Of a stretch of 64,000 nt of DNA, positions 34,806 through 50,300 are shown one piece after another. The notes below the pieces were generated by a model. That model searched no databases, was not told where the DNA came from, and saw only the letters and a program-made list of their open reading frames with translations. The stretch is from an uncultured Gemmatimonadota bacterium (GTDB lineage Bacteria; JAAXHH01). The stretch lies in assembly GCA_951812955.1 (NCBI GenBank), contig OX638340.1, positions 3,488,001 through 3,552,000 of the forward strand. Reading direction: 5' to 3'. The position numbers and the translations under genes were made by a program. Within the stretch, counting starts at the first letter, position 1. Each line of letters starts with the position of its first letter.

Positions 34806-36014
34806 ATGGCTGATGATCGACCTGACAGTGCAGGATCCGACTTCGACGGCTCCGGCGGCGAACGCCTGACTTATGAAAGTTCCGGTGTGGATTACGACCG
34901 GATAGATCCGCTGAAGGTCCTCGCCCAGCGCGCGGCGCGGGACACGGGGGCCAACCTCGACGGCGCGGGCGCCCGCGAGGTGGCGGCCAGCCGTGGGGAG
35001 TCGGCGTACGTGGTGGACATCGGCGACGCCTATCTCGCCTCCATCACCGAATGCCTGGGTACCAAGGCCCTGGTGGCGGACGCGATGTGTGAGGCGTCGA
35101 GTGTATTGAGGGCGTCAGAGGAGTCGGAGGAGTCAAAGGCGTCGGAGGCGTCGCGAAGGACCTGGTACGACCACATCGCACAGGACACCATCGCCACGGC
35201 CGTCAACGACATTGTCACCGTGGGCGCCCGGCCCCTGAGCATCCACGCCTACTGGGCGGCCGGTTCGTCGGACTGGTTCGACGACGTGGAACGCATGAAC
35301 GACCTGGTCGAGGGATGGAAGGCGGCCTGCGACGTCCTGGGCGTGGCCTGGGGCGGCGGCGAGACGCCGTGCCTGACGGGCGTGGTGGAGGAAGGCGCCA
35401 TCGACCTGGCCGCGTCCTGCGTGGGCATCATCCGGCCTAAATCACGCCTCACCCTGGGCGAAGACCTCAGCGCCGGGGACGCGATCATTCTCCTGGAAAG
35501 CAGTGGCATTCACGCCAACGGCCTCACCCTCGCGCGCAAGCTGTCCGAACGGCTGCCGGAGGGCTATGCCACCCTCCTGCCCGGCGGCCGGACGTACGGC
35601 GTGGCGCTGCTCGACCCGACCGTGCTCTACCCTCCCGTTACCGAAGCGGCCTTCGCGGCCGGTATCGACCTGCGCTACATCGCCAACATCACCGGCCACG
35701 GATGGCGCAAGATCATGCGACACCCCGGCAGGTTTACCTACCGCATTACCGAAGTGCCCCCCGTTCCCGAGGTGCTGAAGTTCATGGTGGATGAGACCCA
35801 ACAGACCGCGGAAGAAGCCTATGGCAGCCTCAACATGGGCGCCGGCTTCGCCCTCTTCGTCCGCCCGGAAGACGGGGACGCGGCCGTGGCGTGCGCCGAG
35901 ACCGAAGGCATCCGCGCTTGGGTCGCCGGCGTGGTGGAAGATGGCCCCCGCCAGGTGGTCATCGAGCCGCTGGGCGTTACGCTCGCCGGGGAAAGCCTCG
36001 CCCTGCGGGACTGA
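34806..36014 (+). CDS. AIR-synthase-related (PurM/SelD/HypE/ThiL-fold) protein
   Basis: N-terminal SGVDYDRIDPLK and DIGDAYLASITECLGTKALVA. C-terminal-domain motifs GDAIILLESSGIHANGLTLARK and NITGHGW. The last 15 coding nt plus the stop lie inside the repeat at 36003. Confidence 0.6.
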   Translation: MADDRPDSAGSDFDGSGGERLTYESSGVDYDRIDPLKVLAQRAARDTGANLDGAGAREVAASRGESAYVVDIGDAYLASITECLGTKALVADAMCEASSVLRASEESEESKASEASRRTWYDHIAQDTIATAVNDIVTVGARPLSIHAYWAAGSSDWFDDVERMNDLVEGWKAACDVLGVAWGGGETPCLTGVVEEGAIDLAASCVGIIRPKSRLTLGEDLSAGDAIILLESSGIHANGLTLARKLSERLPEGYATLLPGGRTYGVALLDPTVLYPPVTEAAFAAGIDLRYIANITGHGWRKIMRHPGRFTYRITEVPPVPEVLKFMVDETQQTAEEAYGSLNMGAGFALFVRPEDGDAAVACAETEGIRAWVAGVVEDGPRQVVIEPLGVTLAGESLALRD

Positions 36015-36070
36015 GCCGCGGGCTGACTTCTCTGGTCGAATCCTCTATTCTCTACGATTCTATAATCCAG
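36003..36070. repeat. Left copy of an imperfect direct repeat (core CCCTGCGGGACTGAG ... TCTGG.TGAATCCT.TATT) shared with 50243-50300
   Basis: 15/15-nt identical core plus about 20 further matching positions. Overlaps the stop codon of the PurM-like gene. Confidence 0.45.
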
Positions 36071-36643
36071 CGTAACTCAGTGCTTTTAACCATACGGAAC
36101 CGCTGATCGACTCGGTTGTTCGGTCGAGAGGTATCGTTTGAGTCCGTTGAACGTACGATCACGTTGAAAATGGTGTCGCTCTGGATGCTTACGAGACTGT
36201 TTTCGACCTTGAACGAGTCTGGAACGAGCCGCTTTGCCCTTCGTCCGCATAGGCCTTGTCACCGTAGATCGCCTTCCCTGGACGGTCAGTTTTATTGACG
36301 CGGACTTCGCGGGGCATTGACACCTGCCTGGGTTGACCTTGTCGAAAGCCCGGATCTGCCACGAATCCCGCTTTACTACCGTCAGTAAGACTTAGTACCC
36401 CCTCCCCTAATATACTGTACGCGCCCTATCCGTTTGTTTACAATATAATCATATTTAATTCTTATAATTTCACATTTAAGCCACGAGTTATTGATCTTAG
36501 ATTTGATAAGTTAAGACTCCAGCGTTAGTATTATGTTGAAAAATCCAGTTTGATTCACATATTGAATTTATCAATCTCTGAAACAACTGACCCGTTCGTT
36601 TGTGAATACAGGGGCAGCATTTTCTTCCAAAGAATGTACCTCG
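36071..36643. promoter_or_regulatory. AT-rich promoter/leader region, paralogous to 2206-2536
   Basis: Low GC, no ORF. Shared strings CACGAATCCCGCTT(C/T)ACTA and ...GTAC(T/C)TCGATG before the start codon. Confidence 0.4.
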
Positions 36644-49000: not shown

Positions 49001-50176
49001 GAGATCGATCCCGACAGGACGTTGGACTCCGCGCTCGGTATCGCCGGCCGCATCCCCGAGACGGGAAGGATTACGCCGGATGTGCGAGAGCTTCCGACCT
49101 TCGATCTGACGCTGATCCCTTTTTTATGGACAGAAGGTCCCGATCATTCCGTGTTGTCCGCAATCGAAGGGCTCACGCCGGAATCCGATCTGATGCGGCC
49201 GACCCGAGATCTGCTGCCGGTGAGCGACTTCCAGTTGTCGGTGCACGCGCCGGTATGGACTTCAGTGGATCCCGTATCCGATAACGTAGGCGATCTCGGA
49301 CCCGAATTGGAGGCCATCTATGCCCTTGAAGGAGAAACAGGCTACTATATGGGCATCTTCAGACTGGCCGGACCGCAGGGCGGACTACTGGGGATAGCTC
49401 AGGATATACCCAGCTACTTGAGTTTCTCCATCCTCGATCCTTACGTCATTGCACATGAACTGGGGCACAACCTGAATCTCTATCATGCGCCATGCGGCGG
49501 TGCTCGCGGCCCCGATCCGTTCTACCCATATGGGGATGGTTCCATTGGGGTTTCCGGATACGATATGATGAATGAATCCCTGGTGAGTCCGCAAACCTGG
49601 GACCTGATGAGTTATTGCGAACCGATGTGGATCAGCGACTATTCCTTTTCCAGGGCGTTGAGCCATCGAATCGCGCTGGGCGCTACGATCCCGCCGGCTT
49701 TTGCGGCCGTCACGAGAGGCCTGCTGGTCTGGGGGGGTCTGGACGAAGCCGGGGAACTCACCCTCGAGCCCGCCTTTGTAGTTGACGCGCCGCTTAAGCT
49801 GCCGGAATCCGATGGTCCGTATACCATCAGGGGAGAGCGCGAAGACGGCAGCAATCTGTTCTCACTTTCCTTTGCCATATCGGAATACGCCGATACCGAG
49901 GGAGGATCCTTCGCTTTCATTGTCCCCGTGCGGGAGACCTGGCCCGGAAACCTGCACCGTATAACGCTTTCCGGTCCCGGGGGGTTTGCCGAGATCGACG
50001 GAGACGGGGACCGTTACATGGCGCTCATGCGGGACAGCGTAACCGGCGAGGTCAGAGGCATTCTCAGAGACTGGCCTGATCCATCGGATACCTCGGCAGC
50101 GGGCCGGCGTATCCCGCCCGAACCCGGGATGGAAATAACAGTCAGCGGTGGTGTTCCCGATCGGGATTCGTGGTAG
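46064..50176 (+). CDS. Giant surface lipoprotein (1370 aa): 4 LRRNT-like/LRR cassettes with Cys C-caps plus C-terminal metzincin-like zinc metalloprotease; 58 nt downstream of the 41083 gene
   Basis: Lipobox [62 protein letters not shown] and DLMSYC. Tail [19 protein letters not shown]. Confidence 0.85.
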   Translation: [1370 protein letters not shown]

Positions 50177-50242
50177 TATCAGCGCTTCGGCTAACTGAGT
50201 CTGCACACGTCAGAAGCCACGCACCCGGCCTTCGAACCCGCC

Positions 50243-50300
50243 ACCCTGCGGGACTGAGTCTGGGTTGAATCCTATTGTATCTCCCCGGCTGACTCCTGCT
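50243..50300. repeat. Right copy of the imperfect direct repeat (CCCTGCGGGACTGAGTCTGGGTTGAATCCTATTGTATCTCC)
   Basis: Matches 36003-36070. Non-coding here, 67 nt after the stop of gene 46064. Confidence 0.45.

Follow-up and report, generated by a model that had tools for sequence, protein, structure and literature searches.

Gene content of the locus

The analysed window is a 64,000-nt stretch of DNA in which a PurM-like gene of the AIR-synthase family (hereafter AIRS) is followed on the same strand by three LRR lipoprotein genes (LRR1, LRR2 and LRR3). The features of the locus are as follows:

34806-36014, plus strand: PurM-like AIR-synthase-family gene, 402 aa (Pfam AIRS and AIRS_C); its final 14 nt and the next nucleotide make up the left repeat copy
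36001-36015, plus strand: left repeat copy CCCTGCGGGACTGAG, which covers the 3' terminus of ORF 34806-36014 (A L R D stop) and one nucleotide more; also conserved in relatives, at the stop codon of AIRS
36016-36079, plus strand: left junction tail (blastn of relative L043 against the window; motif scan)
36080-36230, plus strand: fragment 1 of a decayed IS3-family transposase; it is a homolog of fragment 2 and lies some 65 nt into the insertion from its left junction
36337-36601, plus strand: leader of LRR1; the LRR gene at 2537 has a paralogous leader
36602-38980, plus strand: LRR1, lipoprotein with Big_2, LRR and CARDB domains (Pfam); GC3 0.77
38910-39482, plus strand: PPC-domain ORF (Pfam PPC; translation), sharing 71 nt with the LRR1 end in a different frame
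39732-40475, plus strand: relocated "lipo" module, consisting of a lipocalin-like lipoprotein gene (39785-40336) together with some 50 nt in front of it and 140 nt of the spacer behind it
40575-40922, plus strand: fragment 2, the decayed C-terminal part of an IS3-family (DDE) transposase, interrupted by a frameshift and an in-frame stop (translations)
41083-46005, plus strand: LRR2, 1640-aa lipoprotein with two Big_2 domains, LRR arrays, HEIGH and a weak Peptidase_M66 match; GC3 0.64
46064-50176, plus strand: LRR3, 1370-aa lipoprotein with LRR arrays, HELGH and a weak M66 match; GC3 0.64
50177-50243, plus strand: right-end spacer of the insertion, compared with all loci and the RDD-gene-end region
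50244-50258, plus strand: right repeat copy CCCTGCGGGACTGAG, non-coding, 67 nt past the LRR3 stop (50176), with the resident post-stop spacer directly 3' of it
50259-50576, plus strand: resident AIRS-to-o50577 spacer (blastn to L007 and L011; alignment)
50577-50828, plus strand: conserved 83-aa membrane/coiled-coil ORF, o50577 (tblastn 80-92% identity in 14 relatives; translation)

The AIRS product scores 159 bits against the NCBIfam purM model, under its cutoff of 236, and its orthologs in relatives share 79-92% amino acid identity. LRR repeats in the block were typed by Pfam as LRR_1/4/8/14. A lipoprotein signal peptide (L-V-T/R-C-G) is present in LRR1, LRR2 and LRR3, and HExxH motifs with weak Peptidase_M66 matches were found in LRR2 and LRR3. 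The sequence-only reading had described three LRR-lipoprotein/protease genes; the lipoprotein part holds for all three and the protease part for two, but no protease motif was found in LRR1. The PPC-domain ORF is probably a frameshifted C-terminal extension of LRR1.

Pfam and NCBIfam searches of all ORFs in the block and the window revealed no integrase or recombinase. The block has no tRNA, Rfam match, phage, conjugation or other mobility gene, and no tRNA or mobility function was found window-wide. In 40337-41082 we listed the ORFs of at least 30 aa on either strand, translated all six frames and read them by eye, and for 36016-36601 the forward frames were treated in this way; neither interval holds a remnant of a site-specific integrase, and the sole find was the IS3 DDE transposase fragment.

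An insertion absent from related genomes

We compared 23 genomes with readable sequence downstream of AIRS; in one further relative, L016, the contig breaks inside AIRS. The relatives are sponge or coral MAGs, and database labels assign the lineage to either Latescibacterota or Gemmatimonadota. The block at 36016-50243 is absent from all 23 informative relatives, including the closest (L043 and L044) and the distant L017 and L035, and in none of them does a plus-strand LRR block directly follow AIRS. The usual order in most of these genomes is AIRS, 80-330 nt of spacer, o50577 or a small ORF, an RDD gene on the minus strand and MR_MLE. Thirteen of the 14 relatives with a tblastn match to o50577 have it directly downstream of AIRS, the remaining one (L003) having a small extra insert, and this adjacency marks the empty-site arrangement.

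In the closest relative, L043 (~95% nucleotide identity), blastn homology ends at 36022, 8 nt past the stop codon, and restarts at 51533. The left junction tail opens with 7 nt that L043 shares (CCGCGGG, ending at 36022), and homology to relatives stops there; within the tail the gene-end motif recurs in degenerate form as GGGCTGA. On the other side, the right repeat copy continues as relatives do after their AIRS stop codon, with TGA followed by GTCTGG (a boundary common to L044), then a conserved palindromic element and o50577. The resident spacer holds this element as TTTAAAAA..CGAGATC-N8-GATCTCCGACTAAT, with the palindrome at 50341-50360. The relatives' post-stop spacer behind the right copy and the homology break in L043 together establish that 36016-50243 (14.2 kb) is a lineage-specific insertion flanked by a duplicated gene end. 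The empty site, AIRS followed by the sequence from 50259 onwards, had been anticipated from the window alone, as had an insertion at the 3' end of the PurM-like gene that restored it: the gene end is intact at the left junction and its duplicate lies at the right one. No other copy of the block, nor any element at the same core, was found in other genomes.

The repeat at the two junctions

The two copies of CCCTGCGGGACTGAG are identical at 15 of 15 nt. The core proposed by the sequence-only reading is therefore real, with coordinates shifted by 1-2 nt, as is its assignment of the left copy to the last codons and stop (ALRD) of gene 34806-36014 and of the right copy to non-coding DNA. Neither CCCTGCGGGACTGAG nor the shorter core CGGGRCTGAG has a further exact copy in the window, and among 42 related loci CCCTGCGGGRCTGA is confined to the AIRS stop codon, so that the core is not a generic motif.

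Taken by itself, the 15-mer is at chance level in 64 kb and not significant: the window contains about six other, unrelated exact 15-mer pairs, and blastn assigns this pair E = 0.09-0.14. Its significance comes from its position at both synteny-defined junctions and from the comparison with relatives. When junction zones were set by synteny, independently of the repeat, a common 15-mer appeared in 39 of 200,000 random zone pairs (p ~2e-4).

A shared tail of about 40 nt, also claimed earlier, was not confirmed. When the 70 nt downstream of each core are aligned locally, the score of 18 compares with a mean of 13.8 for shuffled sequence (p = 0.07) and gives p = 0.05 with random window pairs as the background; the best alignment, GGCTGACTTCT-CTG / GGCTGACTCCTGCTG, differs from the colinear one of the sequence-only reading. 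Upstream of the core there is no similarity between the two copies (p = 0.36). Since the core is identical while the tails are ~50% different, the tails diverged before the event, a pattern that fits the joining of two alleles and not a fresh 55-nt target duplication.

Origin of the block contents

The lipo module has blastn boundaries at 39732/39744 and 40473/40475. Its orthologs occupy a conserved chromosomal locus, DUF6702-[LRR]-lipo-Peptidase_M1, in four relatives (L039-L042), where the 140-nt spacer of the module leads to Peptidase_M1. The matches listed include no second lipo homolog from the 3,813,436-nt source contig, from which we infer that lipo has been lost from its usual DUF6702-Peptidase_M1 locus in the source genome.

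LRR1 is an old paralog of the LRR gene at 2537, with which it is colinear: 36337-38133 and 2218-4002 are 68% identical over 1844 nt, leader included. Three further LRR genes occur elsewhere in the window, and the LRR genes of the block are old paralogs of other members in the window. The conserved lipo locus, the colinearity of LRR1 with the gene at 2537 and the other LRR genes all show that the contents are native to the clade. Accounts of the lipoprotein at 39785 as foreign cargo and of LRR1 as a recent import are not supported by this comparison. Codon usage gives a divided answer: GC3 is 0.64 in four of the five island ORFs (the PPC ORF, lipo, LRR2 and LRR3) against 0.75-0.85 in flanking genes, as expected for an acquired islet, but LRR1 is native-like at 0.77. 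Tetranucleotide deviation of the block is confounded by the LRR repeats.

The two IS3 fragments are homologous to each other (36093-36184 matches 40585-40676, 75% over 92 nt, E = 7e-12), and the fragment-2 peptide matches 36100-36183 by tblastn. In tblastn against plasmids (729 records), the best match to fragment 2 has E = 5e-7 and covers 73 aa at 40% identity, with features annotated "IS3 family transposase"; fragment 2 has no Pfam match. Both fragments are 5'-truncated, retain the 3' third of the transposase, share one orientation and lie just upstream of an LRR gene leader. Fragment 2 abuts the truncated lipo-M1 spacer, and the ORF-less stretch 40340-41082 holds both pieces. The suspicion that this stretch is a decayed remnant was correct as regards the transposase fragment, but the remnant is not of a site-specific integrase and part of the stretch is the relocated lipo-M1 spacer. 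Neither fragment occurs at any related locus examined, and the block holds no intact IS3 transposase gene, only the two C-terminal fragments.

A hypervariable spacer downstream of AIRS

The spacer 3' of AIRS is a hypervariable hotspot in which different relatives carry different LRR genes. Across relatives it contains LRR genes on one strand or the other, as well as duplicated o50577 and tandem duplications of 92 nt. In 6 of the 24 genomes the AIRS-terminal motif recurs beyond the stop codon, giving ~9 copies where 0.7 would be expected.

Relative L009 carries AIRS-end duplicates of 102 nt (96% identical) and 32 nt that adjoin LRR genes, and the 3' end of LRR3 is homologous to its plus-strand LRR gene (50150-50184 against L009 19166-19200). 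The 102-nt copy is joined to RDD-gene-end sequence through the common 11-mer GCGTCCGCGCG: there, 21 nt from the RDD-gene-end region run into AIRS sequence from -106 onwards, a demonstrable illegitimate microhomology joint at the same locus. In the window copy and in all three L009 AIRS-end copies, similarity stops right at the stop codon, while the left extents of the AIRS-end copies differ (-13, -33 and -106). In the window, 50191-50243 has no significant match to any locus or to the RDD-gene-end region.

Possible mechanisms of insertion

We favor, with modest confidence, a recombinase-independent process in which short-homology or illegitimate recombination put a native 14.2-kb mosaic into the hypervariable AIRS spacer. 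The mosaic would comprise three LRR lipoprotein genes from a family that has expanded locally, a lipo module lifted out of its usual DUF6702-lipo-Peptidase_M1 locus and two 5'-truncated IS3 fragments, which probably mark earlier IS-associated rearrangements that built the cassettes. One plausible route is the joining of two alternative haplotypes of the AIRS spacer; another may be homology-facilitated illegitimate recombination in which the conserved AIRS gene served as anchor for one end. Either way, the joint between 50243 and 50244 would have left the resident AIRS end (last 13 nt, stop codon and 1 nt) as a non-coding duplicate, with the functional end at the left. This mechanism and the order of events in the source genome are reconstructed from the footprints described above. 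Within AIRS no recombination breakpoint was seen, sliding-window identity keeping L016 nearest throughout in a gene too conserved for a sensitive test.

The lack of a breakpoint in AIRS and of any match for 50191-50243 runs counter to the recombinase-independent reading. So do two further observations: similarity ending exactly at the stop codon is also predicted by a site-specific att core, and a site-directed process could have left the reiterated terminal motifs behind as scars. An integrative islet, as first proposed, would have been inserted by a tyrosine or serine site-specific recombinase, with the 15-mer as att core (attL/attR) and the integrase lost or acting in trans. Such an element would explain a direct repeat placed exactly at both junctions, which are also the synteny breaks, together with the restored gene end, the empty sites, an identical core with diverged arms resembling attL/attR, the three L009 copies, all of which terminate at the stop codon and mark module borders, the motif reiteration past the AIRS stop in 6 of the 24 genomes and the lower GC3 of LRR2, LRR3 and lipo. 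We nevertheless consider it unlikely, as neither block nor window contains an integrase or its remnant (the sole remnant being a DDE IS3 transposase fragment) or any phage, conjugation or other mobility gene, the cargo is clade-native, and neither the block nor another element at this core occurs in any other genome. The variable left extents of the AIRS-end copies also argue against it, and the sole readable L009 joint combines AIRS with the end of another gene at a microhomology, which is not an att product. A foreign origin by way of an integrase-type element is not supported. Quite improbable, in our estimate, is a related reading in which the PurM-like gene terminus (CGGGACTGA) is a dedicated recombination site where LRR and small-ORF cassettes are time and again inserted and excised by a recombinase encoded elsewhere, in an integron- or dif-module-like manner. 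If true, each event would duplicate the gene end and leave reiterated terminal-motif scars, and the locus would be an integrase-less cassette system diversifying host-interaction surface proteins in sponge symbionts.

Mobilization by IS3, with the block or its LRR cassettes moving as a composite or one-ended transposon, is rather unlikely. Two homologous, same-orientation fragments do lie upstream of LRR leaders, one about 65 nt from the left junction and one at the lipo-M1 spacer, and their absence from all related loci examined points to IS activity specific to the source lineage; however, both are decayed 3' thirds only 75% identical to each other, the right end lacks an IS3 copy and no significant terminal inverted repeats connect the block ends. 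IS3-family elements generate target duplications of 3-5 bp and hence do not explain a 15-bp repeat, nor would its coincidence with a gene terminus be expected. It is highly improbable that the block is ancestral, with the 15-mer arising by chance and relatives having lost the block through deletion between the copies, or with the repeat irrelevant altogether. In 64 kb a lone 15-mer is indeed no more than chance would supply, the observed empty site is exactly what a deletion between short direct repeats would leave, and the contig of the close relative L016 ends within AIRS, leaving its state unread. Against this stand the 23 of 23 informative relatives without the block, which would need many independent precise deletions, the conserved position of lipo elsewhere in four relatives, the positional p of ~2e-4 and a right copy that perfectly replicates coding sequence within non-coding DNA.

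Comparison with known systems and significance

Genomic islands and ICEs can enter gene 3' ends and restore the gene, as in tRNA- and tmRNA-targeting islands; for instance, ICESt1 and ICESt3 integrate in the 3' end of fda in Streptococcus thermophilus. The block resembles them in its insertion at a gene 3' end, the terminus duplicated at the far junction, the intact gene and the empty sites. It differs in having no integrase or excisionase, transfer or phage genes, in its clade-native cargo, in the lack of a second occurrence and in a core of only 15 nt without demonstrable att arms. From IS3 insertion sequences and composite transposons, whose transposase C-termini the two fragments at cassette boundaries match, the block is set apart by having fragments only, no inverted repeats, no right-end copy and a 15-bp repeat. 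Homology-facilitated illegitimate recombination and microhomology joining have been described in naturally transformable Acinetobacter, Pseudomonas stutzeri and Streptococcus pneumoniae. The likeness here would lie in a large segment entering by a conserved anchor gene without a recombinase and in a partial resident duplicate at the joint; the window's own joint has the partial AIRS duplicate, whereas the 11-nt microhomology is readable in L009 only. The block does not represent a novel class of mobile element; its mechanism is of a familiar type.

Eukaryotic-like LRR proteins have been reported for sponge-associated Latescibacterota MAGs (PMC12993501). The block likewise encodes LRR-rich secreted lipoproteins, several copies per genome, in a sponge- or coral-associated lineage; that study gives domain counts, whereas our analysis concerns how one cluster reached its locus. 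It provides a nucleotide-level example of the gain and reshuffling of eukaryotic-like LRR surface-protein genes in uncultured sponge and coral symbionts, with footprints that can still be read in duplicates of the gene end, a joint formed at a microhomology and the remains of IS3 elements. A hotspot past a housekeeping-type gene bears on the diversification of symbiont surface repertoires.

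Insertion downstream of the AIRS gene

The segment 36016-50243 is a lineage-specific insertion that lies at the 3' end of the PurM-like AIRS gene and is bracketed by a duplicate of that gene's end. The genes of this block and its surroundings are as follows.

Genes in and around the block
31805: L-PSP, upstream of the block
32955: CxxCxxCC gene, upstream
33412-34791: SelA-like PLP enzyme, upstream
34806-36014: PurM-like AIRS gene, directly upstream
36602-38980: LRR1, in the block; lipobox, Big_2, LRR, CARDB
38910-39482: PPC-domain ORF, in the block; overlaps the end of LRR1
39785-40336: lipo, lipocalin-like lipoprotein, in the block
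41083-46005: LRR2, in the block; lipobox, LRR arrays, HExxH, weak Peptidase_M66 match
46064-50176: LRR3, in the block; lipobox, LRR arrays, HExxH, weak Peptidase_M66 match
50577: 83-aa ORF, downstream
51209: 97-aa repeat ORF, downstream
within 51503-52132: RDD-family gene, minus strand, downstream
51948-53147: MR_MLE, minus strand, downstream
after MR_MLE: M14 peptidase, saccharopine dehydrogenase and PPK2, downstream
2537-9769, 9799-11454 and 20382-22145: three further LRR genes of the window

A search of species-representative genomes with the AIRS protein yielded 36 loci, and a protein search added L043 and L044, contigs that are closer still. The close AIRS loci come from MAGs of sponges or corals that carry the label Latescibacterota or Gemmatimonadota. 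By synteny mapping, some two dozen genomes share these flanking genes; the usual order there is AIRS, a spacer of 80-330 nt, the 83-aa ORF and/or a small ORF, RDD (minus strand) and MR_MLE, and plus-strand LRR genes directly after AIRS were found in none of them. In L043, ~95% identical to the window at the nucleotide level, homology covers 33806-36022 (stop codon plus 8 nt) and restarts at 51533. A 41-nt post-stop insert of L043 was considered as a deletion scar of the block and rejected, with only its first 8-12 nt and a 9-nt piece of the core matching. The contig of L016 (JAPOOT010000252.1), the closest species-representative relative, ends at 7682 (~35890 of the window), inside the AIRS 3' region; a repeat (LRR or IS) may follow there too.

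The exact 15-mer CCCTGCGGGACTGAG is present in two copies, at 36001-36015 and 50244-50258, so that the fully matching core described in the sequence-only reading is borne out. The left copy comprises the final 14 nt of the AIRS ORF (..ALRD, stop) and one further base; the right copy is non-coding and lies 67 nt past the stop of the last LRR gene. Taken alone, a pair of this length is nothing unusual for 64 kb: with the LRR repeats left out, the window has about six more exact 15-mer pairs, all unrelated, and blastn of the pair gives E ~0.1. The 15-mer is nevertheless no generic motif, because the window holds only these two copies and CCCTGCGGGRCTGA is confined to the stop codon of the orthologous AIRS gene in 42 related loci. 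The 10-mer CGGGRCTGAG also has just two copies in the window.

What follows the right copy is orthologous to the spacer that relatives have after the stop: L044 shares TGA|GTCTGG with the window, and after it come a conserved element, TTTAAAAA...CGAGATC-N8-GATCTCCGACTAAT, and the 83-aa ORF. Both repeat copies therefore coincide with the two synteny breakpoints. A 15-mer would be shared by chance between the two breakpoint zones with a probability of ~2e-4, and we thus regard the insertion, with its duplicated gene end, as real and lineage-specific. The ~40-nt tail previously added to the core did not hold up: when the 70 nt behind the two cores are aligned locally, p is 0.05-0.07 and the best alignment differs from the claimed one. 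A resemblance of the tail to the post-stop sequence of a related locus (L001) was discarded, since it traces to another conserved element, which in L043 and L044 lies ~200 nt downstream. No similarity between the two copies was found upstream of the core, and no boundary motif is common to the other LRR cassettes in the window.

Recombination footprints in related genomes

The spacer after AIRS is a hotspot whose footprints can still be read. In seven relatives (L003, L004, L009, L011, L015, L032 and L044) the locus is occupied by other LRR genes, most of them on the minus strand, either between the 97-aa ORF and RDD or between AIRS and the 97-aa ORF. Inspection by eye of the L003, L032 and L011 insertions, whose LRR genes are on the minus strand, showed no evident direct repeats. 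Units of the 83-aa ORF are duplicated in L003, L010 and L034, and L007 has a 92-nt tandem duplication.

A precedent for a duplicated gene end is L009 (OZ241920.1), where a second copy of the final 102 nt of AIRS (96% identical) lies just ahead of an LRR-protease gene on the plus strand and an additional 32-nt copy immediately follows the 83-aa ORF. There are three AIRS 3' end copies in all on this contig, with sites at 11567-11598 and 14296-14416. The left edge of the 102-nt copy is a hybrid, in which 21 nt identical to the RDD gene end pass into AIRS via a shared 11-mer, GCGTCCGCGCG; judged from its sequence, this edge is a signature of microhomology-mediated illegitimate recombination. The joint concatenated two alternative spacer versions, namely the 83-aa ORF with a minus-strand LRR gene, then the plus-strand LRR gene. 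In the window, as in every L009 copy, similarity to AIRS stops at the stop codon, and the left extent of the copies differs (-13, -33 and -106).

In 6 of 24 genomes, the 100 nt that follow the AIRS stop contain further copies of the terminal motif GGG(A/G)CTGA, ~9 in total where 0.7 would be expected. The gene's final 8-13 nt recur one to three times in tandem just past the stop in L005, L007, L008, L010, L043 and at 36016-36030 of the window, possibly through slippage or as scars of repeated insertion and deletion.

The conserved non-coding element upstream of the 83-aa ORF (50320-50400 of the window) carries a perfect GAGATC/GATCTC inverted repeat, with a palindrome at 50341-50360. It is found downstream of AIRS in L002-L012, L020, L032, L034, L043 and L044, is tandemly duplicated together with the 83-aa ORF in L003, L010 and L034 and alone in L007 (92-nt unit), and could act as an operator or form a small mobile unit.

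Content of the block

The proposal that the cargo is a horizontally acquired islet is contradicted by two of its genes, lipo and LRR1, which to judge by their homologs are native. The 35 homologs of lipo are 53-71% identical, and in relatives the gene has a conserved locus: DUF6702 (minus strand), an optional LRR gene, lipo and Peptidase_M1 in all four contexts examined. The segment 39732-40475 is homologous to the relatives' lipo, extended by ~50 nt on the upstream side and, on the other, by the initial 140 nt of the lipo-M1 spacer. Because of this conserved locus elsewhere, and since no second homolog from the 3,813,436-nt source contig was among the matches listed, the lipo module was apparently moved here from its usual place between DUF6702 and Peptidase_M1. 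A metagenome scan found lipo at two loci only, neither of them next to AIRS. LRR1 and its leader align colinearly with the LRR gene at 2537 (68% over 1.8 kb). The compositional evidence is divided: GC3 is 0.64 for the PPC ORF, lipo, LRR2 and LRR3 versus 0.75-0.85 in the flanks, but LRR1 is native-like at 0.77, and the tetranucleotide signal of the block is confounded by repeat content.

The ORF-less stretch 40340-41082 had been viewed as a possible decayed remnant, to be searched for traces of an integrase. No integrase remnants were found there, and part of it (40338-40475) is lipo-M1 spacer; what stands, at ~40575-40922, is a C-terminal piece of a DDE transposase of the IS3 family, with a frameshift (..GNCLWILAKVF.. 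/ ..FYSHERQNPSLGYLAPAEV..). This fragment matched 729 plasmid records in tblastn, the best (E = 5e-7) annotated as IS3 family transposase; Pfam gave no match to the stitched translation of the stretch. A second, homologous fragment lies at ~36080-36230, only ~65 nt inside the left junction. Neither has counterparts in related loci.

Further features of the window

The window contains no tRNA, no Rfam match was obtained at E <= 1 in leaders and junctions, and promoter and terminator scans were no better than shuffle level. The PPC ORF overlaps LRR1 by 71 nt in a different frame and is probably its frameshifted continuation (pseudogene or sequencing error), in which case the original product would have ended in CARDB and PPC. 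The 209-aa minus-strand ORF at 51503-52132 overlaps MR_MLE and has inverted codon-position GC (GC1 0.73, GC2 0.66, GC3 0.53); it is probably over-extended at its 5' end, because the gene called there in L043 and L044 encodes a 150-aa RDD-family protein.

The 5' part of the SelA-like gene (33355-33654, about the first 300 nt) is 45-55% identical in most relatives and 91% in L016, the remainder being 70-97% identical; L013 and L027 have two such genes in tandem. Within LRR2, a 190-nt segment is duplicated (41299-41488 and 41554-41743, 93% identity, 255 nt apart), which is a recent internal duplication of a Big_2 domain, and a 72-nt LRR unit forms a near-perfect array at 43673-44392. Tandem repeats also include a 33-nt (11-aa) unit at 51302-51466 within the 97-aa ORF and a CTG-rich 9-nt unit at 31387-31487, the 5' end of an Omp85-like gene (minus strand). 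GC is low at 22000-24000 (45-50% versus ~60% elsewhere); this region, which adjoins the LRR gene at 20382-22145 (minus strand), has a minus-strand OMP beta-barrel gene at 23025-23600 and a 235-aa ORF without annotation.

Mechanism of insertion

The core is identical at 15 of 15 positions even though the right copy is non-coding, whereas about half of the adjoining tails differ. The tails therefore diverged before the event, and so a fresh long target duplication is disfavoured. Two diverged alleles of the AIRS end plus spacer would instead have been joined, with the joint at 50243|50244, by haplotype concatenation or homology-facilitated illegitimate recombination. Illegitimate or short-homology recombination has a somewhat better than even chance of being the mechanism, because there is no recombinase, the cargo appears native and L009 offers a precedent. 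We infer this mechanism only indirectly, since no partner sequence of the window's right joint could be recognised and sliding identity along AIRS reveals no mosaic breakpoint. The lack of a breakpoint also led us to reject the idea that an L009- or L002-like donor supplied AIRS, or just its 3' portion, along with the block. A reading of 50191-50243 as an RDD-gene-end remnant, as in L009, was dropped as well (alignment p ~0.5).

An island inserted by an integrase at att sites, as the sequence-only reading proposed, accounts for the geometry, but every genetic component of it is absent, with neither an integrase nor a recombinase in the whole window, and we consider it improbable. In form the block is like an island integrated at a gene's 3' end, and it departs from such islands in integrase and foreign cargo; its behaviour is that of known insertions by illegitimate recombination. 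Transposition mediated by IS3 is likewise unlikely: its fragments are present, yet the repeat is of the wrong kind and the right end has no copy. In the favoured mechanism the IS3 debris would mark earlier cassette rearrangements. That the block is ancestral and the repeat fortuitous is highly improbable, as many independent precise deletions would be needed.

Eukaryotic-like LRR proteins have already been described in sponge-associated Latescibacterota (PMC12993501), and the insertion is an event of a familiar kind, resolved here in good detail. Only the reiteration of the gene-end motif at this site stands out as odd. It might reflect a dedicated recombination site for cassette exchange at the AIRS terminus; we consider this very unlikely, but it would be the more interesting outcome if true.
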